Source: an uncultured bacterium
GTDB lineage: Bacteria > Omnitrophota > Omnitrophia > Omnitrophales > Aquincolibacteriaceae
Length of the DNA: 64,000 nt
Assembly (NCBI GenBank): GCA_964482725.1
Contig: CAYZYT010000003.1
Coordinates: forward strand, 49,252-113,251
Direction: 5' to 3'
Part shown: piece after piece, positions 16,057-39,828 of the stretch
How positions within the stretch are numbered: the first letter of the stretch is position 1
Layout of the letters: every line of letters begins with the position of its first letter
The notes under the pieces: generated by a model
What the model was told of the DNA's origin: nothing
Databases searched by the model: none
What the model saw: only the letters and a program-made list of their open reading frames with translations
Position numbers and translations under genes: made by a program

Positions 16057-16521
16057 ATGGACCGGATGGAAGTAGCAAAGAAGTTTTATACGCAAGCACA
16101 GAGGATGACGATCGGGATGGCGGCCTCAGTGATCGCCTATGGAGCGATCGGATTCTATTTGATCCAGATGGGGAAGGCGGGCCCCGCGATCTTAAATGCC
16201 CAAACGTATCCGCTTGTAAAATACGGAGCGCTCACGGTCTCGGTTCTTGGAGTTTTCGCGATGTGGAAGATAAGCAACCGGATCTTTAGCGCGTCCCAGG
16301 GGGCTATCCCGGCGGCAGACCGTCCCGTGCAAAAGATTTTTTTAAAGACGGTCATCATGAACGCCGGGGCAGAGCTGCCGCTTCTTTTAGGGATGCTCCT
16401 CGTGTTCTTCGGAAGGCAGCCCTACGACTACATCCCGTTCGCGGTCGTTTCTCTTGCGGGCTTCGCGCTTGCGTTCCCCAAGAAAGAGCAATGGGCGACC
16501 TGGCTCGGAGCAGACTTCTGA
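16057..16521 (+). CDS. Hypothetical integral membrane protein (154 aa, about 4 TM helices)
   Basis: An ORF with a GGAG RBS-like element upstream and hydrophobic helices. It ends at the inverted-repeat element at 16541-16650. Confidence 0.45.
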   Translation: MDRMEVAKKFYTQAQRMTIGMAASVIAYGAIGFYLIQMGKAGPAILNAQTYPLVKYGALTVSVLGVFAMWKISNRIFSASQGAIPAADRPVQKIFLKTVIMNAGAELPLLLGMLLVFFGRQPYDYIPFAVVSLAGFALAFPKKEQWATWLGADF

Positions 16522-16540
16522 ATGCTTGAGGAAATCCCCA

Positions 16541-16650
16541 ACCCTAAATCCTAAACAAATCCAAAACAAAAAACTTCAAACTCAAAAGCGTGGTTTTGGA
16601 TTTCGAGTTTTAGACATTTGAGTTTATTTAGGGTTTAGTGTTTTGTGTTT
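16541..16650. repeat. A/T-rich imperfect inverted repeat of the CTAAAYCCTAAA / AAATCCAAAAC family, between convergent genes
   Basis: The left arm is ccctaaatcctaaacaaatccaaaac and the right arm gttttggatttcgag...tttagggtttag. The words are shared with the elements at 29791-29890, 30250-30360 and 39731-39828. It probably also acts as a bidirectional terminator. Confidence 0.5.
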
Positions 16651-16687
16651 AAGGTTTTGCGTGGAAGTTTCTTCGCATTTCAAAAAA

Positions 16688-17764
16688 TCAGGGGTTAATG
16701 AGCCCTTCGAAGAGTTCTTCGGGGGTGAAACGGCGGATGTCGAGGATGGCCTGAAAGACGGGCATGTATTCCTGCAGTTCACGGCCTGTTTCGGCGACTT
16801 TCGTGAGGTCGATCTGACGTTCCTTCTGGTAGCTTTCCAGGAAAATATTCCGGACCTCCTGTCGGACCGCGCCTGAAACCCGCACCGCGATAAAGCAAAG
16901 GAAAAATCCGATGTCCCAGACGCGTTTATCCTGGCGCCCGCAGAACTCCAGGTCCGTGAAGTAGACTTTCTGTTCCACCGCCACCCAGATGCAGTTGACG
17001 GGCTGAGTGTCGATCAGCGAGTAACCTGCGCGGTGGATCTTGGCTAGGCCGATCGCGGATTGCCGGATCACGGCCTCATCTCCGGGCCCCATCGCCTGGC
17101 GCTCGCCGATCCGTTCCAGGATCGAATCGACGGTCTCACCGGTGATATGCTCGGTGACCATGACTTTTTCGACGGCGTCATACGAGATGAGGCGCGGGAC
17201 CGGAACGCCAAGCTCGGTGAGCTGGACGCGGCTGACCATATCCACGGTGAATCGCTCATGGGTCTTGCCGCCGTAAATGGCGGGGAAGGGGCTGACGAAG
17301 GCGAGATGCTTGGCCCAGAAGCTGCCGGCATCGAGGAAGATCTTTACGAAGAAGCGGATCTCTTCTCCCGAGGTCTTGCGACCCGCCTGAAATTCAGGGC
17401 GAGGCTCGCCTGCTTTCGCAAGGCGGCAGTGCCAGATCTGGTTGGAATTGCTGACGCCTCCCGAGACGGACTCCACGGTCAGAGACTCAGGGTCCACACC
17501 CTCGAAGGCAAGCGCGTGGCGCCTCAAAAAGTTCCGGCAGGTGGCGATTTTGCGCCAATGGCCGACTCTGGAGAAACTCATGGCAAGGGAGACCACGAGC
17601 CAGGGGAATAAGAGCACCGTGCCCGCGATGATCTTAAATACGACGCGGGGCCGTGTTCTGAGGACATGCCCCGCAAACCGGGCCCGGAAGGCGGCGAATC
17701 TCTGGCGCAGTTTTTCCCGGCGAGTCGTCATAGCAGCATTCCTTTGGCGGAGCAAACATGACAT
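16688..17764 (-). CDS. Membrane-anchored kinase-like protein (APH/choline-kinase/Kdo-kinase-like phosphotransferase fold)
   Basis: It has an N-terminal TM helix followed by a protein-kinase-like fold, with a glycine-rich SGGVSNSN segment and a catalytic-loop-like region IDTQPVNCIW...DLEF. The assignment is tentative. Confidence 0.5.
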   Translation of the reverse strand: MSCLLRQRNAAMTTRREKLRQRFAAFRARFAGHVLRTRPRVVFKIIAGTVLLFPWLVVSLAMSFSRVGHWRKIATCRNFLRRHALAFEGVDPESLTVESVSGGVSNSNQIWHCRLAKAGEPRPEFQAGRKTSGEEIRFFVKIFLDAGSFWAKHLAFVSPFPAIYGGKTHERFTVDMVSRVQLTELGVPVPRLISYDAVEKVMVTEHITGETVDSILERIGERQAMGPGDEAVIRQSAIGLAKIHRAGYSLIDTQPVNCIWVAVEQKVYFTDLEFCGRQDKRVWDIGFFLCFIAVRVSGAVRQEVRNIFLESYQKERQIDLTKVAETGRELQEYMPVFQAILDIRRFTPEELFEGLINP

Positions 17765-20696: not shown

Positions 20697-20789
20697 AACA
20701 GGACGACAGACCGGAGACTAGAGACTAGAGACTGGAGCTAAATCTCTTGTCTCGGGTCTTTAGTCTTCAGTCTGAAAAATGGAGCAATT

Positions 20790-23929: not shown

Positions 23930-25807
23930 ATGGCAAACTTATTGCGGAAGAGTCTTAAAGTCCGGGTGTTCGTGACATTCCTCGCGGTGGCGATCGTCGC
24001 GGTGTCTTTGCTGGGCGTGGTCGCGTATTTTTCAGGCCGGCGAATACTGCAGAAACAAATTCTTGATAGCTATAAGAACATTTCAGACTCAAGGGAAGGA
24101 GAGATCGTCATGTCCCTTGACGAGGCTAAGGCCGAATTTGCGCTTTTGGCCGGGGATTATCATATTCGGGAGCTCACGGAAAAGATTGTTAAAAACGATT
24201 TGGAAGCGGCGCGATCGCTCCAGGAACTTGTCGCCTATGCCAGGGCGCTTCTCGCGACAGGGAAGAACAGCTACGAATATTTCATTGTGGATATGCGGGG
24301 TAAGATCCTCGCCTCGACCGATGAGGCGCATATCGGAATCGACCGGGCGAAAGATGCGTATTTTATCAACGGACAAAAGCAGCTTTATATCAAAGATATC
24401 GGCAAATCCGAAATCACCGGCCAAGTCGGGTATGTGGTGGCGGGTCCGCTTCACTCGGTGGGCTCCGGGGAACTTTTGGGGGTGTTCTGCATTCGCCGAA
24501 ATCTTGAGCAAATGAACGCCATTATTTCAAATCACGAGGGCATGGGAGAAACCGGGGATATCTATATTGTTAATAAGGATGGATATTTGTTCACGAATTC
24601 CGCGTTTGAGGCAGCAGAGGCTCTCAAGAAAAGGATCGAGACTGAGCCCGTCCAGCTCTGGCAGTCGCAGAGAAAAGAATTAACGGGCCTCTACCGGGGA
24701 TTTGCAGGACAAATGGTGCTGGGCTCTTCGCATGGAGCGGATCTCTTAAAGGCCACGAACGACCTGGGATGGCTCTTGATCGCCAAGATCGACGCGCAGG
24801 AGGCTTTCGCACCAGTCCAGAAATTGGGTTTCACGATCCTCATGATCGGCTGCATCATCAGTATTCTGGTGGCACTCATCGCTTATCGTATTGCCAGCGG
24901 CATTGTCAACCCCATTACCGCGATCGCTCAGATCGCCCAAAGGGTGGGAGAAGGCGATCTGACTCATAATGTCGCGGAGACGACCGCTCAGGATGAGATC
25001 GGAAATCTGACAGCCGGTTTCAGGGCCATGATCACCGGACTCCGTAATATTTTGATGAAAGTCCAGGAAGCCACGGGGCAGATCACTGCTTCCGGTACCG
25101 AGATCCTTGCAGCGTCCCAGCAACAGGCCTCGGCGGCGCGGGAGCAATCTTCCGCGGTTGCGGAAACATCGTCAGCGGCGAAGGAGCTCTCCACAACCTC
25201 GGAGTCCGTGGGCGAAAGCATCAAGAAGGTCGCGCAAGTTGCGTCCCACGCCATGGCCGGAATGGCGAAGATCAAGGAATCGATCGATAAAACGAACGGG
25301 ATGCTGAACTCTCTTGGGGAGAAATCCCAAAAGATCGGGAAGATCACCGATCTTATCGATGACGTGGCCGACCAAACGAATCTTTTAGCTGTGAATGCTT
25401 CGATCGAAGCCGCGCGTGCCGGAGAACAGGGCCGAGGGTTTACGGTCGTGGCTGATGAGATCCGAAAACTTGCGGATTCGACCGCAAAATCCACCAAAGA
25501 TATCACGGGGCTGATCGAACTGATCCAGCACGAGATGTCGAACGCGATCATGTCGATGGAGCAAAGCATTCAGAGCGTGGATGAAGAGGCGCGGCTCGCG
25601 CAGCAGACCACGGAAAAGACCAAAGAGATCGCGATGAGCACGCACCAGCAGATTTCGGGCGCCAAACAGATCGCGGAAGCGATGATGAATATCGACGAGA
25701 CCATGAAACAGGTGGCCGCCGGGGCGCAGCAATCCCAGGTCGCCGTCAAACAGCTTACGGCCATGGCCGGGGAATTGAATCACCTGGCGTCGAAGTTCAA
25801 GCTGTAA
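23930..25807 (+). CDS. Methyl-accepting chemotaxis protein with a large periplasmic (double-Cache-like) sensor, HAMP and MCP signalling domain
   Basis: The layout is TM1, a periplasmic region of about 280 aa, TM2, HAMP ([23 protein letters not shown]), then an MCP signalling domain ([31 protein letters not shown]). Confidence 0.9.
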
Positions 25808-25867
25808 AGAAGCAAGAGGTAAAGAAATAAGAAGCAAAGAAACAAAGAAGCTGGCGCCATGTTGTTT

Positions 25868-27650: not shown

Positions 27651-29789
27651 GTGGCTTTCGATAAATCAAAATTCATCGACCAGTTCAAAACCGAGACGCG
27701 GGAGCGCATCCAGACGCTCAGTCTTGGCTTGCTGAAGCTTGAGAAAAATCCCTCGGACCGTGAACTTTTAAATTCCATGATGCGGGAGGCCCACAGCATT
27801 AAGGGCGGGGCCGGCATGATGGGGTACAAACGGATCGCGGACATCACCCATAAAATGGAAGACGGTCTTCAGCGAGCTTTGAACGGTCAAATCACCCTTA
27901 CAAAAACTTGTTTCGAAATGCTTTTTAAGTGCCTGGATGCCGTCGAGCCGCTTCTTCAGGATAAAGTGACCTGGAACGATCGCGGGATCAACCGAGACTT
28001 CACGGAAGATCTCTGCGTTTTGGCTGAAAAGATTTTTTCAGGAAATTTCAAGGGAGAAATCCCTCCGACGGTGGAAGCCGCGGTGGCATGTGCGGTGCCT
28101 GAAGCTCCGTTGGCGTCTGAACCCGAGGCGCCCCTGCCGCCGGCTTCGGAACCTGCGGCACCCGTGGAGGACAGTGTTCGGGTGGATATCGAAAAACTGA
28201 ACCGTCTGATTAATCTTTCCGGGGAGCTGCTCATTTCCAAAATTCGTCTCGAAGAACTTTCCAAAAACCTTTTGGAGAAAGCGGAAGCTCAGGGAGAAGC
28301 GTACGGGGTTTTCAGCGGAGTGGTGAAGGATCTGACCGCGGTGACGGACCGAATTGATCTCCTGACTGAGAACATGCAGGATGAAATGATGAAGGTGCGG
28401 ATGTTGCCGGTGGCTTATCTCTTCAATACGTTCCCCAGGGCGATGAGGGATCTTGCCCAGTCAAAAGGCAAGGGAATCGATCTTGTGATCGAGGGACAGG
28501 AGACCCATCTGGATAAAGCGATCCTAGATGAGATGAAAGTTCCTCTCATGCATCTTTTAAGGAATTCGGTGGATCATGGGATCGAATCTCCTGAGGAGAG
28601 GATAAGACAGAACAAGCCGGCTGTTGGGAAGATCTGTCTTTCTGCCACCCAAGAGGGTTCTCAGGTGGTCATTGCGGTAACGGATGATGGCCGCGGGATC
28701 GATGTGGCCAAGGTCAAGGAGATCGCGGTCGCGAAGGGGCTTGTTTCGCGAGAAAATATTCAGTCCATGGTGGATGAACAGGTCTTCCAGTTGCTTTTTG
28801 CCCCCGGGTTCAGCACGAGTGAAGAAGTGACCGAGATCTCGGGGCGCGGGGTCGGGCTTGATGTGGTCCGGGAAACGGTGATCCGGCTGAAGGGCATGGT
28901 GGAGGTCAGCTCCGATCCTTCTTTAGGGACGAGCTTTATCATCCGTTTGCCGCTGACACTTGCGATCACCAAAAGTCTTCTCGTGATGGCAGGAAGCGAT
29001 ACGTACGCCATCCCGGTCGATTCGGTGATCGAAACGGTCCGCATCGATCTGGACAATCTGAAGACTGTCGAGACCAAAGATGTGATCACCGTCCGCGGGC
29101 ACATTTTGCCGGTCGTGAAGTTGCATGATATTTTCGGGCTTCCCGCGAAAGGGATCCTGGAAAAGAAGTTTTTCCCCGTCCTGATCGTTCAGTCCGTTGA
29201 AAAAAGGGTCGGCCTCCTGGTGGATGAGCTTATCGGGCGCCAGGAGATCATCTCCAAAAGCATGGGGGATCCCTTGAAGCATGTGAAGCACATTTCGGGT
29301 GCGACGATCCTGGGAAGCGGGAAAGTGGTGATGATCCTGGATATCCCGTCGATCATCCATTCGGCGGAGGGCGGGGTGGTGCGGCCGTCGGAGGCAAAGC
29401 CCAAGGGGGCCCCCGGCAAAAAGAAAAAAACGATCTTGCTTGCCGAAGATACGCTCACGACTGCCATGCTCGAGAAAAACATCCTGGAGTCGGTGGGCTA
29501 TTCGGTCGTTATTGCGCGCGACGGCCAGGAAGCGCTCGACAAGGCTTCCCAGGAGAAATTCGATCTTGTGATCTCCGACGTTTTGATGCCGCGCATGGAC
29601 GGGTTTGAGCTGGTGACGCGCCTTCGAAGAGAAAAAAATTATAAAGAAATTCCGATCATCATCGTGACCACGCGTGAAAGCGATGAAGATAAGCGCAAAG
29701 GTATGGAAGCCGGAGCGAATGCCTATCTTCTGAAAAGCGATTTTACTTCCGAAGGTCTTCTGGAGACGATCGAGCGACTGCTCGGGTAA
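27651..29789 (+). CDS. cheA: CheA histidine kinase fused to a C-terminal CheY-like receiver (CheA-REC hybrid)
   Basis: The domain series is Hpt (REAHSIKGGAGMMGY), dimerisation, HATPase (GRGVGLDVV), CheW-like, then REC (ILLAEDTL...DLVISDVLMPRMDGFEL...LLKSDF). A GTG start has a GGGGG RBS-like motif upstream. Confidence 0.95.
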   Translation: MAFDKSKFIDQFKTETRERIQTLSLGLLKLEKNPSDRELLNSMMREAHSIKGGAGMMGYKRIADITHKMEDGLQRALNGQITLTKTCFEMLFKCLDAVEPLLQDKVTWNDRGINRDFTEDLCVLAEKIFSGNFKGEIPPTVEAAVACAVPEAPLASEPEAPLPPASEPAAPVEDSVRVDIEKLNRLINLSGELLISKIRLEELSKNLLEKAEAQGEAYGVFSGVVKDLTAVTDRIDLLTENMQDEMMKVRMLPVAYLFNTFPRAMRDLAQSKGKGIDLVIEGQETHLDKAILDEMKVPLMHLLRNSVDHGIESPEERIRQNKPAVGKICLSATQEGSQVVIAVTDDGRGIDVAKVKEIAVAKGLVSRENIQSMVDEQVFQLLFAPGFSTSEEVTEISGRGVGLDVVRETVIRLKGMVEVSSDPSLGTSFIIRLPLTLAITKSLLVMAGSDTYAIPVDSVIETVRIDLDNLKTVETKDVITVRGHILPVVKLHDIFGLPAKGILEKKFFPVLIVQSVEKRVGLLVDELIGRQEIISKSMGDPLKHVKHISGATILGSGKVVMILDIPSIIHSAEGGVVRPSEAKPKGAPGKKKKTILLAEDTLTTAMLEKNILESVGYSVVIARDGQEALDKASQEKFDLVISDVLMPRMDGFELVTRLRREKNYKEIPIIIVTTRESDEDKRKGMEAGANAYLLKSDFTSEGLLETIERLLG

Positions 29790-29790
29790 A

Positions 29791-29890
29791 ACAAATCCTA
29801 AATCTGAAATCCAAGCTCTATGCATAAAATCCGAAATACGAATATCGAAATTCGAAATAATTCATTAATTTCAAAAATCCAAACAAGATA
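29791..29890. repeat. Left arm of the inverted repeat flanking the four-helix-bundle ORF (AAATCCTAAAT / AAATCCGAAATACGAATATCGAAATTCGAAA words)
   Basis: It matches the reverse complement of 30250-30360 (for example AATCCGAATATCGAAACTCGAAA) and shares words with the repeats at 16541-16650 and 39731-39828. Confidence 0.5.
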
Positions 29891-29895
29891 AACCG

Positions 29896-30243
29896 ATGGC
29901 TGGAAAATACGATTTAGAAGAAAGCACGGAGAAATTCGCTCGGGATGTGATCCGGTTTTGTAAGGTCTTGCCTAAGAATGCCATCAATTTTGAACTTATG
30001 AGCCAAGTGGTGCGGTCGGCGGGATCCGTAGGTGCTAACTACATAGAGGCAAATGAAGCGCTTAGAAAAAAAGATTTTCTTCACCGCATTAAAATCTGTA
30101 GGAAAGAAGCGAAAGAGACCAGATATTGGTTGCGGCTTATCGGATCAGATGATGTCGCTATCGAAAAAGAGGCAAGCTGTTTGGGTAAGGAAGCTACTGA
30201 GCTGATGAACATCTTCGGAGCAATCCTCAGAAAAGCTTCATAG
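29896..30243 (+). CDS. Four-helix-bundle protein (23S rRNA intervening-sequence protein family)
   Basis: The 115-aa product MAGKYDLEESTEKFARDVIRFCKVLPKNAINFELMSQVVRSAGSVGANYIEANEALRKKDFLHRIKICRKEAKETRYWLRLI matches the conserved pattern of this family as I remember it. The ORF lies in the loop of a long inverted repeat. Confidence 0.8.
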   Translation: MAGKYDLEESTEKFARDVIRFCKVLPKNAINFELMSQVVRSAGSVGANYIEANEALRKKDFLHRIKICRKEAKETRYWLRLIGSDDVAIEKEASCLGKEATELMNIFGAILRKAS

Positions 30244-30249
30244 CTGGGC

Positions 30250-30360
30250 GTTTAAGCATTGGAAAATTCGAATTTGTTTCGAGTTTCGATATTCGGATTT
30301 AGGGTTTAGCGTTTAGAATTTAGGGTTTATTTTTGTTTCGATGTTCGGATTTTGATATTT
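30250..30360. repeat. Right arm of the inverted repeat flanking the four-helix-bundle ORF (TTTCGATATTCGGATTTAGGGTTTAG words)
   Basis: It is the reverse-complement partner of 29791-29890 and contains three TTTAGGGTTTA-like words. Confidence 0.5.
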
Positions 30361-30378
30361 GCATTTAAAGGGGGATCC

Positions 30379-31392
30379 ATGCCAAAAACCATCCGGGTTC
30401 TGATCGTGGACGATTCGACGCTGGCCCGTCAGGCTCTGAGCGCCCTTCTTAGTACGGATCCCGAGATCGAAGTGATCGGAGAGGCTCGTAACGGGAGAGA
30501 GGGTTATGAGAAGACCCTGGCTTTAAGGCCCGACGTGATCACTATGGATATTACGATGCCGGTCATGGATGGGGTTCAGGCCACGGAACTTATCATGGAG
30601 GAAGTCCCCACGCCGATCGTGCTCGTTAGCACCCGGGATGTCCAGGTGATCGTCAAGGCGCTCGCGTTCGGGGCGATGGATTTTGTGGCGAGCACCGGGG
30701 ATCTTGAAGAGATGAGGGCAGAGCTGATCGACAAGGTGAGGATCGCTTCACGAGTGAGGGCGATCCGGCGTATGCATACCCGTCCAGTCCTTCAAAGAAC
30801 GATTACTCGCCGGCCGGCCGCATCCACGGTCGTGGCTCTCGGGATATCAACGGGAGGCCCCCAGGCGCTTCAAATCCTGCTCTCCATGTTGCCGGCTAAA
30901 TTCCCTGGGAGCATTCTTGTGGTCCAGCATATTTCTTCCGGTTTTATTCAAGGGCTCGTGGAATGGTTGAGTGTCACCTCTCCACTCGATATCCGTGTCG
31001 CGAAGGCCGGGGATGCATTGAAGATCGGAACGGTCTTTTTCGCGCCGGATGGTGTTCATATGACTGTAGATAAAGAGGAAAAGATCGCTCTCAAGGAAGA
31101 TGTCTCCAAAAAGATGCTCCACGTCCCTTCGATCGATGTGATGATGCGATCCGTGGCGGAAGTTTATCAAGAAAGAGCCCTGGGGGTCATCATGACCGGG
31201 ATGGGCCACGATGGTGTGGAGGGGATCTCTTCGATCAAGTCTGCGGGAGGTTATACGATCGCGCAGGATGAAAAAACGTCCGCGATCTATGGGATGAACA
31301 AGCTTGCGGTAGATCAAGGTACGATCGAGCGTGTGTTGGCGCTTGAGCAGATCGCCGCCGAATTGATTCGCGTCGCCGGCGGCACGTACTAA
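30379..31392 (+). CDS. cheB: Chemotaxis response regulator protein-glutamate methylesterase CheB
   Basis: It has an N-terminal REC domain (RVLIVDDS...VITMDITMP) and a C-terminal methylesterase with the catalytic triad context GISTGGPQAL, VVQHISSGF and TGMGHDG. An AAAGGGGG RBS precedes the ATG at 30379. Confidence 0.9.
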   Translation: MPKTIRVLIVDDSTLARQALSALLSTDPEIEVIGEARNGREGYEKTLALRPDVITMDITMPVMDGVQATELIMEEVPTPIVLVSTRDVQVIVKALAFGAMDFVASTGDLEEMRAELIDKVRIASRVRAIRRMHTRPVLQRTITRRPAASTVVALGISTGGPQALQILLSMLPAKFPGSILVVQHISSGFIQGLVEWLSVTSPLDIRVAKAGDALKIGTVFFAPDGVHMTVDKEEKIALKEDVSKKMLHVPSIDVMMRSVAEVYQERALGVIMTGMGHDGVEGISSIKSAGGYTIAQDEKTSAIYGMNKLAVDQGTIERVLALEQIAAELIRVAGGTY

Positions 31393-31556: not shown

Positions 31557-32750
31557 ATGAAAAAGAGAATTCTTGTGGTGGATGATAGCTCGCTGGTGCG
31601 CGAGATGTACAAGGCTCAGTTGGAAGAAGCCGGCTATGAGGTCTGGACCTCAGCGGATGGGATCGAAGCAATTAATGCGGCGTTCACTCAATCTCCCGAC
31701 CTCGTTTTGTTGGATGTCCATATGCCCAAGATCAATGGGTATCAAGTCTGCCGGCTTCTCAAGGATCGTTCTGAAACCAAAGATATCCCGATCGTCATTA
31801 TGACGGCTCGGGATGCCGGCGGGGTGGTCGAAGATCCCCAGAAATGGAGTTTTCAGACCGGCGCAGACGGATTTTATGGCAAAGACGAAGGCGCGGCCCT
31901 GCTGCCCTCCGTAGCCTTGTACCTTCAAAAAAATAGGCCCCTTGCGAAATCTCCCTTGGCCGGTCAGGCCAAAGCCATGAGTGAGACCGAGATCATGCTC
32001 GCGCTTTCCGAGCTTTTGGACCGCCAGCTTTATCTGGATATCACGCGGCTCAAGGAATTGAATGAAATGAAGAATGTGTTTGTTTCGAACGTGGCCCACG
32101 AGTTCCGAACACCGATCGCGGCCATGCAAGGTTATCTCGAGAACCTCCGGGATGGCATTTATGGTCCGGTGACGTCGGAACAGAAAGAAACCATGGCGGC
32201 GATGCTCAAGACGATCAGGCGCGTCTTGCGTTTAACACGGGACATGCTGGATATTTCAAAGATCGAAGCGGGAAGGCTCGAGCTGGATCACCAGGATGTT
32301 GACCTCGCGAAGGTCGTCAGGGAAGCGGCCAAGACTTTTGAAATCGAGGCTTCCAAAAAACGGATCAAGCTTGTTCTTCAGATCCCGGGCAATCCCGTTC
32401 ATTTCTGGGGGGACGAAGACCGGATACCTCAAGTGTTCGTGAATCTCATCAGCAATGCCATTAAATACACCCCCGAAGGCCAGACCGTAACGGTTCGGGT
32501 TCATGAAGAGCCGCAGGACGGTGCGATCCGTGTTGAGGTGGAAGATACCGGCAAGGGAATTCCTGTAGATCAGAGAGAAAATATCTTTGATAAATTCACC
32601 CGGATCAAGACTGAGAAAGAGGAAGGCACAGGCCTCGGGCTCTCCATCGCGAAGGACCTCGTCATGCTGCACGGAGGGAATATCTGGGTCGAGTCCGTTT
32701 CCCCCACAGGTTCCCGCTTCGTGGTCATTTTGCCCCAGAAGAAACCCTAG
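31557..32750 (+). CDS. Hybrid response regulator/histidine kinase (N-terminal REC, then HisKA and HATPase)
   Basis: The REC domain reads RILVVDDSSLVREM...LVLLDVHMPKINGYQVC, HisKA reads NVAHEFRTPIAAMQGY, and HATPase reads DEDRIPQVFVNLISNAIKYT ... DTGKGIP ... GTGLGLSIAK. Confidence 0.85.
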   Translation: MKKRILVVDDSSLVREMYKAQLEEAGYEVWTSADGIEAINAAFTQSPDLVLLDVHMPKINGYQVCRLLKDRSETKDIPIVIMTARDAGGVVEDPQKWSFQTGADGFYGKDEGAALLPSVALYLQKNRPLAKSPLAGQAKAMSETEIMLALSELLDRQLYLDITRLKELNEMKNVFVSNVAHEFRTPIAAMQGYLENLRDGIYGPVTSEQKETMAAMLKTIRRVLRLTRDMLDISKIEAGRLELDHQDVDLAKVVREAAKTFEIEASKKRIKLVLQIPGNPVHFWGDEDRIPQVFVNLISNAIKYTPEGQTVTVRVHEEPQDGAIRVEVEDTGKGIPVDQRENIFDKFTRIKTEKEEGTGLGLSIAKDLVMLHGGNIWVESVSPTGSRFVVILPQKKP

Positions 32751-32895
32751 TTCCCGCTTCGCGTCGCTTCCGAAAAATTCAGCCGACCAGCTTTCAAGGC
32801 AGGGACAAGGGGTTTAGTCCGTGGGGGGGTATGTCGATAATGAGTTATCGACATAATTCAGGTTTATGAACTATCATTAGGGAGAATCATGCTAA

Positions 32896-33285
32896 GTGGC
32901 GGGGTGTTCCGTGGCTAAAAAAATTCTGCTGGTCGATGACAGCGCGTTGGTGTGCGCCATGATCAAGACGCAGTTGGAAGAGGCCGGTTATGAGGTCTTG
33001 ATCGCGAAAGATGGGCAGGAGGGTTTGGACCTCGCACGTAAGGAAGTGCCCGATTTTATCTTGCTGGATCTGATGCTTCCAAAACTCGATGGCTATAAAG
33101 TCTGCCGGATGCTCAAATTCGACAAAGTTTTCGAGCATATTCCCGTTATTATTTTTTCGGCTCGGGAGAGTGATGCGGATAAGAAACTCGCGGAGCAGTC
33201 CGGGGCCAACGCGTATATGGTCAAACCGTTCGATCCGGAGTTGTTCCATAAGACGATCCAGAAGTTGACCCGGAACTCAGCCTAG
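32896..33285 (+). CDS. Single-domain CheY-like response regulator (paralog 1 of 4)
   Basis: It has the acidic pocket LLVDDS, phosphoacceptor Asp in FILLDLMLP, and Lys in MVKPFD. It is closest to paralog 4. Confidence 0.85.
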   Translation: MAGCSVAKKILLVDDSALVCAMIKTQLEEAGYEVLIAKDGQEGLDLARKEVPDFILLDLMLPKLDGYKVCRMLKFDKVFEHIPVIIFSARESDADKKLAEQSGANAYMVKPFDPELFHKTIQKLTRNSA

Positions 33286-33313
33286 ATCATTCAGGGATGC
33301 GAGAGTTGCTTCT

Positions 33314-33724
33314 ATGAAAAAAAAGATTCTTTTGGTGGAAGATGAATCCCAGATACGGACGATCATTAGCGCGCGGTTGGCGGCCATGGGTTTTGAGGTG
33401 CTGATCGCGAAAGATGGTCTCGAGGGGCTGCATCTCGTTCGCAAGGAATCTCCGGACGTCGTTTTGTTGGATCTGATGCTCCCCGGAATGGACGGCTACA
33501 AACTATGCCGGATGATCAAATTCGATGTGGCTCTTGAACATATCCCGGTCGTCATTTGTTCGGCCAGGGCGAGTGATGAGGACAAGAAACGTGCAGAACA
33601 GTCCGGCGCTGACGCTTATCTGGTGAAGCCGTTCGAGATCAAATTGTTTGTGGAGACCATCCAGAAGCTGCTAGGGGTCTCACCTTCCAACCAACCTGAC
33701 GGGTTAGAAAAACCAGACTCGTGA
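33314..33724 (+). CDS. Single-domain CheY-like response regulator (paralog 2 of 4)
   Basis: It has the REC motifs LLVEDES, VVLLDLMLPGMDGYKLC and LVKPFE, plus a short C-terminal tail. Confidence 0.85.
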   Translation: MKKKILLVEDESQIRTIISARLAAMGFEVLIAKDGLEGLHLVRKESPDVVLLDLMLPGMDGYKLCRMIKFDVALEHIPVVICSARASDEDKKRAEQSGADAYLVKPFEIKLFVETIQKLLGVSPSNQPDGLEKPDS

Positions 33725-33764
33725 AAAGTTATTGGATAGAGTCAAGGGCGCGTGAGGGGCTTTT

Positions 33765-34133
33765 ATGAAAAAAAAGGTCCTTTTTGTGGAGGATGAATCC
33801 CAGATACGGGAGATCATTCTCGCGCGGTTGACCGCCATGGATTTTGAGGTGGTGGTCGCCAAAGACGGTCTCGAGGGTTTGCGGCTTGTTCGCACGAAAC
33901 GCCCCGACATGGTTTTACTGGACCTGATCCTTCCAAAACTGGACGGCTACAAGCTTTGCCGGATGATCAAGTTCGATACCACGCTTGAGCATATTCCGGT
34001 GATCATCTGCTCGGCCCTGGGAAGCGACGAGGACAAAAAACTCGCCGAACAAGCCGGCGCAGATGCGTACATGATCAAACCGTTCGATATGGATTTGTTT
34101 GTTTCCCTGGTCCAAAAGCTGACGGGTGTTTGA
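33765..34133 (+). CDS. Single-domain CheY-like response regulator (paralog 3 of 4)
   Basis: It has the REC motifs LFVEDES, MVLLDLILPKLDGYKLC and MIKPFD. It is closest to paralog 2. Confidence 0.85.
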   Translation: MKKKVLFVEDESQIREIILARLTAMDFEVVVAKDGLEGLRLVRTKRPDMVLLDLILPKLDGYKLCRMIKFDTTLEHIPVIICSALGSDEDKKLAEQAGADAYMIKPFDMDLFVSLVQKLTGV

Positions 34134-34213
34134 TCTTCAGGTTTGGATTTTGAGAACAGGCGTTTTTAGGGATTTTTATTTTGATAAAATGAAAGGTGAA
34201 TAGGGCGAATTTC

Positions 34214-34582
34214 ATGAAAAAAAGGATCCTTTTGGTGGATGATGAGCCCAATATTCTGACGATCGTGAGCGCGCGCCTGGTGGCCCTGGGTTTCGAAGTG
34301 CTGATCGCTCGAGACGGTCAGGAGGGCTTGGACCTTGCGCGCAAGGAATCTCCGGATGCGATCTTGTTGGATCTGATGCTTCCGAAGCTCGATGGTTATA
34401 AAGTCTGCCGGATGCTCAAATTCGACAAGGTTTATGGGCATATCCCGGTGATCATCTTTTCAGCCAAGGGGAGTGAGGAGTCTAAGAAGATGGCGGATCA
34501 GGCCGGTGCCGACGCGTATATGGTCAAGCCGTTCGATAACAAGTTGTTCGCGGAGACAATGAAGAGGCTGACAGGGGTTTGA
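34214..34582 (+). CDS. Single-domain CheY-like response regulator (paralog 4 of 4)
   Basis: It has the REC motifs LLVDDEP, AILLDLMLPKLDGYKVC and MVKPFD. An alternative GTG start lies at 34196. Confidence 0.85.
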   Translation: MKKRILLVDDEPNILTIVSARLVALGFEVLIARDGQEGLDLARKESPDAILLDLMLPKLDGYKVCRMLKFDKVYGHIPVIIFSAKGSEESKKMADQAGADAYMVKPFDNKLFAETMKRLTGV

Positions 34583-39730: not shown

Positions 39731-39828
39731 TCCGGGGAATGAATGATAAACTCTAAACTCGAAATCCGAGACTCTAAACAAATTCAAATTTATGAAAACT
39801 CTAAACACTAGAGCGTCTCTCAATAGCG
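39731..39828. repeat. A/T-rich CTCTAAAC / CGAAATCCGAG repeat copy, same family as 16541-16650 and 29791-30360
   Basis: It contains ctctaaactcgaaatccgagactctaaacaaa...aaactctaaacacta. Confidence 0.4.

Follow-up and report, generated by a model that had tools for sequence, protein, structure and literature searches.

The locus described here raises the question of why a gene from a protein family known from intervening sequences (IVSs) of 23S ribosomal RNA (rRNA) lies between two chemotaxis genes. The window, i.e. the whole stretch of DNA that was analyzed, comprises 64,000 nucleotides of a contig from an uncultured bacterium of the phylum Omnitrophota (GenBank assembly GCA_964482725.1, contig CAYZYT010000003.1, positions 49,252 to 113,251). 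A preliminary description had placed a four-helix-bundle open reading frame (ORF) in the loop of an inverted repeat of ~100 bp between cheA and cheB, and had considered a mobile IVS-like cassette that had landed in a protein-coding operon. This last suggestion is strongly supported by our comparative data. With a probability of roughly 0.7, the segment 29813–30308 represents a widespread type of cassette that moves horizontally, has no promoter, carries a PF05635/TIGR02436 gene and is nested here in an older hairpin of heptamer repeats. Of the more general assignment of the element, as a mobile selfish cassette of a heptamer-flanked four-helix-bundle family, we are more confident still. The locus is composed of the following features:

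27651–29789, plus strand: upstream host gene, hybrid CheA with a C-terminal receiver (REC) domain (Pfam Hpt, H-kinase_dim, HATPase_c, CheW and Response_reg)
29793–29812, plus strand: outer left arm AAATCCTAAATCTGAAATCC of an older, ORF-less hairpin of the CTAAA type (fold partner 30313–30333; outside the block in common with the related locus L188)
29813–30308, plus strand: proposed mobile cassette proper (left array, ORF and right array), about 495 bp (block in common with L188; low G+C content)
29823–29863, plus strand: left terminal array of about 4.7 heptamers, AAATnCG (nhmmer match to the arm profile of the family, E = 2e-7; Tandem Repeats Finder, TRF)
29896–30243, plus strand: four-helix-bundle protein gene, 115 amino acids (hidden Markov models, AlphaFold2, Foldseek)
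30264–30308, minus strand: right terminal array, reverse complement of the left one, CGnATTT (nhmmer, E = 1.5e-8; main-helix partner of 29827–29863)
30298–30333, plus strand: outer right arm of the older hairpin, TTTAGGG repeated 4.6 times (TRF; fold partner 29788–29807)
30332–30369, minus strand: second, degenerate right-type arm overlapping the start of the cheB ribosome-binding region (weak nhmmer match, E = 0.3; direct repeat of the inner right arm)
30379–31392, plus strand: downstream host gene cheB, with its ATG at 30379 (Pfam Response_reg and CheB_methylest)

The Pfam domains of both neighbors agree with the position of the ORF between cheA-REC and cheB that had been given in the preliminary description. 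The first heptamer unit follows the stop codon of cheA-REC after 3 nt, and the Shine-Dalgarno (SD) sequence of cheB (AAAGGGGG, 30366–30373) is kept outside the cassette. The G+C content of the cassette is 40%, compared with 53–56% in cheA and cheB.

The 115-residue protein contains the sequence GANYIEANEA...RIKICRKEAKETRYWL and matches TIGR02436 with an E-value of 1.2e-22 (80.2 bits, cutoff 24) and PF05635, annotated as '23S rRNA-intervening sequence protein', with an E-value of 2.6e-17 (63.4 bits, cutoff 33.8). Both scores lie above the curated cutoffs, and the assignment to the four-helix-bundle (23S-rRNA-IVS-type) family, for which these profile searches had been proposed as a check, is thereby confirmed. 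An AlphaFold2 model (pLDDT 92.6) comprises four helices (residues 8–23, 29–54, 58–81 and 87–114). The nearest solved folds found with Foldseek are PDB entries 2RLD (TM score 0.80) and 2GSC, followed by Avd, a protein of diversity-generating retroelements (DGRs; 4DWL and 8UB7, TM score 0.72). Since 2RLD and 2GSC contain five chains each, the protein may form a homopentameric ring. Avd is a pentameric accessory four-helix-bundle protein that works with nucleic acid (PMC10053308), and a pentameric ring is likewise seen in 2RLD and 2GSC. The likeness in fold would fit an orphan avd gene left behind by a DGR. The sequence identity to Avd is just 11–14%, however, against the strong match to TIGR02436. 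The neighbors encode a methyl-accepting chemotaxis protein (MCP), CheA, CheB and a histidine kinase but not a reverse transcriptase, and the region holds no pair of template and variable repeats, its repeats being the heptamer arms and short chance matches. We give a DGR remnant next to no credence.

Two further identities were rejected: a phage as the vector of the cassette, since the ORF has neither a PHROGs match nor relatives in IMG/VR viral contigs, and a defence protein, since there is no PADLOC match.

The inverted-repeat strings of the preliminary description lie at 29826–29857 and, as reverse complement, at 30266–30301. In the minimum-free-energy fold of 29780–30380 the flanks are joined by 70 bp with a mean pair probability of 0.84. 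The main helix pairs 29827–29863 with 30270–30307 (34 bp) and an outer helix pairs 29788–29807 with 30313–30333 (19 bp). The layout of an ORF in the loop of a long stem, which had been suggested together with a folding check, is thus reproduced. Compared with composition-preserving shuffles, the whole region folds with a z-score of -2.6 and the arms alone with z = -5.1; connected by a tetraloop, the arms reach -65.1 kcal/mol versus -43.8 +/- 4.2 kcal/mol for shuffled arms. Both arms show a peak of self-similarity at a lag of 7, and TRF reports AAATACG repeated 4.7 times at 29827–29859 and TTTAGGG repeated 4.6 times at 30298–30329. An accidental or low-complexity repeat is ruled out by the z-score of the arms and by the recurrence of the arm consensus in about 75 independent loci. 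In the window no Rfam family matched at the gathering threshold, and in the cassette region none matched at E ≤ 1.

Since inner arms of a CGAAA type and outer arms of a CTAAA type are both present, the inverted repeat of ~100 bp is composite: the flanks are indeed imperfect inverted repeats of each other, but they consist of two nested pairs rather than one. The inner pair of 45-nt terminal repeats belongs to the cassette, and the outer pair is an older hairpin resident in the cheA-cheB spacer. The degenerate arm at 30332–30369 was probably left behind by an earlier element or by the resident hairpin. The preliminary description had mentioned neither the 7-nt periodicity of the arms nor the older enclosing hairpin, nor three further sites with heptamer arrays in the window.

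The history of this junction was reconstructed from orthologous spacers, which were found via CheB homologues (identities refer to CheB residues 1–129; related loci are designated by L numbers). A metagenome scan with the CheB query yielded relatives at 45% identity or less only. In L187 (CheB 78% identical) the spacer has 61 nt and no arrays. Both L103 (81%) and L185 (87%) contain an eroded hairpin of 135 nt with an A-rich and a T-rich arm, and L102 (81%) has a 169-nt spacer with a CTAAA-type hairpin and no ORF. The spacer of the closest relative, L101 (98%), has 154 nt. On its left side it is identical to the window up to and including ...ATCGAAATTCG, after which it continues with GATTT..., so that it corresponds to the window minus about 441 bp between the ATTCG at 29850–29854 and the ATTCG at 30291–30295 (joint ATTCG|GATTT). 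The deletion leaves a mini-palindrome inside the outer CTAAA hairpin and keeps the left array of the window exactly. The cassette therefore decays by internal deletion to an ORF-less hairpin.

At the same cheA-cheB junction of a more distant host, L188, whose CheB N-terminus is 64–68% identical to those of all others (65% to that of the window), we found the cassette again. The block 29813–30305 is 95–96% identical at the nucleotide level, compared with 84% for cheA and 69% for cheB, and the synonymous divergence (dS) is 0.17 for the ORF and 1.64 for cheB. The right arm of L188 has gained one heptamer. The cassette is thus much younger than the split of the two hosts and has moved horizontally into the same spacer.

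The recurrence of an A-rich/T-rich hairpin in orthologous spacers (L101, L102, L103 and L185, CheB 81–98%) could also speak for an intercistronic RNA module that benefits the host, in which a hairpin with or without an ORF acts as a processing or stability site and uncouples the expression of cheA and cheB. The length of the predicted duplex would suffice for RNase III, and the cheA stop codon and the cheB SD sequence are left intact. The array-free spacer of L187 argues against such a module, as do the low G+C content of the cassette and a history at odds with that of its host. Moreover, the same cassette occurs at hundreds of unrelated junctions in many phyla.

The breadth of the family is considerable. 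Proteins with 62–96% identity to the 115-residue protein are very numerous, a search of representatives of 50%-identity clusters returned 7,384 clusters at E ≤ 1e-3, and representative genomes (one per species) contain 593 relatives. The loci of the best 80 of these 593 (57–69% identity) were analyzed in detail, with array counts on 75 elements. They come from Omnitrophota, Desulfobacterota, Planctomycetota, Chloroflexota, Patescibacteria, Gammaproteobacteria, Bacteroidota, Nitrospirota, WOR-3, KSB1 and anammox bacteria, and the heptamer-flanked layout is common to about 80 relatives (57–76% identity) from more than 10 phyla. The first three contexts were all co-directional operon junctions, and the flanks had the sequence known from the window (histidine kinase/response regulator in L005, GH123/polysaccharide deacetylase, and CNNM/CNNM).

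An anchored alignment gave a consensus of 45 nt for the arm, TAAATyCGAAATyCGAAtatCGAAATtCGAAACAAAT, whose reverse complement occurs on the right side. A profile of this arm produced 183 nhmmer hits in 77 sequences. TRF found a period-7 array on the left in 60 of the 75 elements, on the right in 60 and on both sides in 51, compared with 4 of 102 control segments from the same loci. The copy number per array has a median of 4.0–4.4 and a mode of 4. The arms occur in CGAAA, CTAAA and CCAAA variants, and the dominant variant is the same in both arms in 64 of 75 elements. The heptamer class also follows the nearest neighbor of the protein in 64 of 75 cases (44.5 expected, maximum 59 in 2000 permutations). 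Both agreements show that ORF and arms are inherited as a unit. Second copies in the fetched loci (30–48% identity) are flanked by arrays of other heptamers (among them AAAGGCA, AATTAGC, AAAGTAA and GAAATTG).

Both ORF and arms are under purifying selection. For the ORF, dN/dS is 0.03–0.18 among pairs of the family and 0.11 versus L188. Synonymous sites are saturated by about 80% amino acid identity and the arm consensus survives across the whole range; the sequence of the arms is therefore itself constrained.

The position of the cassette relative to its neighbors is narrowly defined. With neighboring genes predicted by a simple longest-ORF heuristic, the upstream neighbor lies on the strand of the ORF in 66 of 72 loci, the downstream neighbor in 69 of 77 and both in 59 of 69. 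For both neighbors 58% would be expected, given that other adjacent pairs are co-directional in 76% of cases (p = 1e-6). Between co-directional flanking genes, 59 copies are in sense and 1 is in antisense orientation, i.e. the cassette persists at operon junctions in the sense direction. The median distance from the upstream stop codon to the left end is 6 nt, and from the right end to the downstream start codon 15 nt. In L013 an SD-like AAGGAG motif is located just left of the cassette (about 2480–2500) and the downstream start 6 nt to the right of it (2915–2925). Folding of the arms would join the two in this locus, an arrangement that is not general in other loci.

No SD sequence was seen 5' of the four-helix-bundle ORF on inspection of the sequence, and a scan of 29600–30500, which covered the sigma-70-type consensus only, yielded neither a sigma-70-like promoter nor an intrinsic terminator. 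Judging from the sequence, the gene would lack a promoter of its own and be expressed by read-through from the che operon. Such a dependence on read-through would explain why only sense copies persist.

Neither the window nor the 20 related loci that were checked contain an rRNA gene; only tRNA and tRNA-Sec genes occur as neighbors. In two related loci, CCAAA-type cassettes lie just 5' of tRNA-Sec and in another one the cassette abuts a tRNA gene (L093 3143–3236, L100 1081–1174 and L075 2942–3013), which indicates that the neighborhoods of RNA genes are landing sites as well.

A tblastn search against plasmids gave 21 records, mostly cyanobacterial, with 32–40% identity. In 10 of the 10 plasmid loci examined, period-7 arrays flank the gene on both sides, each with its own unit (among them AATTCAA, AAGTAAA, AAGTCGG, GTAATTC with AATTTGG, AATCCCC with AATCGTA, ATGAAGG, AATTAGG and CAGTGAA). 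Nine of these ten copies are wedged between operon genes. The junctions are helicase/methylase (twice), HsdS/HsdR, drmD/MmeI, csx2/cas1, cas2/cas1, RND adaptor/permease, KAS III/M20 hydrolase and, in L189, two hypothetical genes. The longest arrays were observed in L192 (Planktothrix agardhii plasmid p1, 1190–2020), where AATCCCC is repeated 6.6 times, AATCGTA 4 times, ACGATTT 5.9 times and AAATCCC 14 times. They resemble classical cyanobacterial short tandemly repeated repetitive (STRR) sequences, and the gene lies between drmD of a DISARM system and an MmeI-type enzyme. In L190 (Anabaena cylindrica plasmid pANACY.01, 1305–2066) the four-helix-bundle gene is antisense between cas2 and cas1, with AAGTAAA arrays in direct orientation on both sides and an inverted array of the TTTTACT type further downstream. 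This copy is an exception both to the sense rule and to the simple rule of inverted arms.

Six of the ten plasmid copies reside in restriction-modification, DISARM or CRISPR operons. The copies in cas operons are in line with the listing of PF05635 genes as 'cas-associated' (PMC3936711, PMC10910872). Together with CheA-REC/CheB in the window and the histidine kinase and response regulator in L005, this might suggest that the protein is a functional partner of signaling or defence operons and works with two-component, chemotaxis, Cas or restriction-modification proteins. The remaining contexts are, however, unrelated to these functions (glycosidase/deacetylase, CNNM transporters, an RND pump, fatty-acid synthase, tRNA-Sec), close orthologues of the che operon do without the ORF, and PADLOC does not recognize it. 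A partnership of this kind is very improbable in our view.

Clues to the mobility of the cassette come from the distribution of the arms. In 479 kb of sequence (related loci and window) there are 62 arm pairs that enclose the four-helix-bundle ORF, with a median loop length of 391 nt, and 8 pairs without it (loops of 43–126 nt), and no other cargo was found between arm pairs. The ends read TAAAT...ATTTA in about half of the copies, and a TA is present at both ends in about half of 59 copies. Several copies occur within single metagenome-assembled genomes (MAGs; L049 and L070). Clusters of ORF-less arm pairs are present in L038 (2260–3696) and L092 (2229–3549), where the four-helix-bundle ORF lies between hairpins and not inside one; in L092 the arms are stacked in the order L L R R R R. 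These clusters suggest nested or repeated insertion into existing hairpins.

Within the window, period-7 arrays were observed at the site of the cassette and at three other positions only:

16528–16664, no strand assigned: ORF-less hairpin of the same family with arms CCTAAATCCTAAACAAATCC... and ...GAGTTTATTTAGGGTTTAG (nhmmer 16531–16566, plus, and 16613–16656, minus; -31 kcal/mol; TRF)
20706–20775, no strand assigned: ORF-less hairpin of a different heptamer, GAGACTA / TAGTCTC, with GAGACTA repeated 3.4 times facing TAGTCTT/CAGTCTG (TRF, period 7)
39740–39793, plus strand: solo left-type arm, TAAACTC repeated 4.7 times, ending ...CTAAACAAATTCAAATTTATG (nhmmer, E = 7e-5; TRF)

The first hairpin is located between the convergent genes 16057–16521 (plus strand) and 16688–17764 (minus strand). 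The second one fills the 93-nt spacer 20697–20789 between two co-directional ORFs, and its GAGACTA class shows that the genome hosts more than one heptamer family. The solo arm has no right arm that could be found; it is located 5' of a pilin-like ORF, and the arm is followed by a G+C-rich hairpin. Two observations concern the wider surroundings of the che genes. The spacer between two MCP genes contains an A-rich tandem repeat with a period of 8/15 (AAAGAAGC, 25804–25851), which is no heptamer array. On the 3' side of cheB (31557–34582) there are a REC-HisKA-HATPase hybrid kinase and a series of stand-alone receiver-domain genes, as is also the case in L101.

Several points weigh against the cassette reading or limit its reach. 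No consistent target-site duplication was found in the 12 nt that border 59 copies on each side, and no transposase or recombinase gene is linked to matching arms in the 479 kb around the copies. We know of no catalytic activity of a helical bundle like the 115-residue protein. The L188 locus is a metagenome contig of 1.1 kb, and a chimeric assembly across the repeat is possible. The longest-ORF heuristic behind the strand counts is crude, and the sense bias could stem from selection against antisense transcription and not from a need for expression; the restriction of the promoter scan to the sigma-70 type has to be borne in mind as well. On plasmids the 3' array is usually the reverse complement of the 5' one, but L191 has it in direct orientation, and L190 and L195 partly so. 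Finally, native arm pairs are no more stable than pairs of the same class combined across elements (-65.3 versus -64.5 kcal/mol, p = 0.64), and G:U mismatches in the sense RNA show no excess over A:C mismatches (144 versus 134, p = 0.59).

Selection for an RNA stem, as might be expected from the preliminary idea of a processing stem that cuts the cheA-REC message from the cheB message, is thus favored by neither of the two tests, pairing energy across elements and G:U versus A:C mismatches. In combination with the direct arrays of some distant relatives, this result suggests that the arrays are sequence-specific sites and that the stem would be a by-product of their inverted arrangement. For the host-beneficial RNA module introduced above, the absence of any sign of pairing selection is a further difficulty, and we regard it as quite unlikely.

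The mode of spread could alternatively be that of a non-autonomous DNA transposon, similar to a miniature inverted-repeat transposable element (MITE), which is mobilised in trans by a transposase and carries the four-helix-bundle gene as a passenger. The 45-nt terminal inverted repeats (TIRs) with their conserved consensus and the TAAAT...ATTTA ends in about half of the copies would be typical of such an element, and ORF-less derivatives, nested copies, local arrays and several copies per MAG (L049, L070) are in line with it. A consistent target-site duplication is lacking, however, and a transposase beside matching arms is missing from the 479 kb. A mere passenger would also not be expected to show a 59:1 sense ratio, a dN/dS of 0.03–0.18 and co-variation with the arms across subfamilies down to 30% identity. 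A MITE-like origin appears unlikely to us, if clearly less so than the other alternatives.

Based on these results we propose the following scheme for the cassette as a mobile, promoter-less element. The gene would be transcribed by read-through from the che operon. In the che transcript the arms on either side of the ORF would pair to form an imperfect duplex of about 70 bp, which is a plausible substrate for RNase III, and cleavage would part the cheA and cheB messages, by analogy with the IVSs of Coxiella and Leptospira (PMC4990558). That the che message is indeed split in this way is a tentative proposal, to which we would give somewhat less than even odds. The conserved feature would be the heptamer arrays and not the stem. 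The protein, as a pentameric ring, would bind about one heptamer per subunit, on DNA or on RNA, and this binding would maintain or spread the cassette. Binding of the heptamer arrays by the protein is conceivable to a similar degree, short of even. The most likely route of spread would be that the cassette recombines into heptamer hairpins already resident at operon junctions.

A comparison with known systems places the element between several of them. The IVSs of 23S rRNA that contain an S23p/PF05635 ORF (Leptospira, Coxiella burnetii, Xanthomonas and Brucella) are excised by RNase III (PMC4990558). The cassette shares with them the protein family, the position of the ORF in the loop of a TIR stem and the size of about 0.4–0.75 kb, as well as a G+C content below that of the host, a poor or absent SD sequence, signs of horizontal transfer and short ORF-less versions (PMC4990558). 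It differs from them in that it occupies an operon junction in messenger RNA and not helix 9, 25 or 45 of 23S rRNA, in that its arms are tandem heptamer arrays without a sign of pairing selection, and in that cleavage by RNase III is only predicted. Correia/NEMIS elements of Neisseria, enterobacterial ERIC sequences and REP/BIME sequences are short, TIR-bounded intergenic elements that are co-transcribed and occur in many copies per genome. Their hairpins in messenger RNA can be cut by RNase III or RNase E, and Correia elements duplicate a TA. The cassette is likewise a short, TIR-bounded and hairpin-forming element within a transcription unit; these elements, however, have no ORF and no tandem heptamers in their arms, and the cassette lacks a target-site duplication.

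Paired heptamer arrays without an ORF have been annotated as putative regulator sites in Geobacter metallireducens (PMC2700814), and TAACTGA arrays have been noted in Beggiatoaceae and cyanobacteria (PMC4679880). The reported intergenic arrays consist of about five heptamers, paired on opposite strands, and lie between operon genes (moaA-mosC, proB-proA) or directly 5' of start codons. They match the ORF-less hairpins at 16528–16664 and 20706–20775 and those in L101–L103. In contrast to them, the arrays described here flank a PF05635 gene, which applies to each of the 10 plasmid loci and to most of the 75 close relatives. In the literature searched, which did not extend to subscription journals and database family notes, no report links heptamer arrays to PF05635 genes or describes operon cassettes of this kind; this type of element has so far been described there only inside rRNA genes.

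These comparisons can be extended to a wider conjecture, which is worth stating, if doubtful. PF05635 proteins might be ring-shaped readers of about five heptamers, one per subunit, similar to TRAP, which reads triplet repeats. Their cassettes, devoid of a transposase, would home to heptamer hairpins at operon junctions and in rRNA helices. This would explain the rRNA IVSs with an ORF, the intergenic arrays of cyanobacteria (STRR), Geobacter and Beggiatoaceae, the 'CRISPR-associated' and restriction-modification IVS-protein genes, and the origin of Avd.

To our knowledge, the four-helix-bundle 'IVS protein' family, which was discovered in Leptospira rRNA in 1993, is still without an assigned function, and tandem heptamer arrays in bacterial intergenic regions are an equally old puzzle. 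In the present locus and its relatives both are joined in a single unit that is inherited as a whole and is under purifying selection, and the hypothesis offered is that the four-helix-bundle protein binds its own heptamer arrays. PF05635 genes inside cas, restriction-modification or signaling operons may accordingly be insertions and not components of these systems, and the rRNA IVSs may be no more than the most conspicuous place in which a far broader kind of element has landed. For the bacterium itself, the finding means that its che operon carries a parasite of 0.5 kb, whose structure in the transcript may alter the balance of CheA and CheB.

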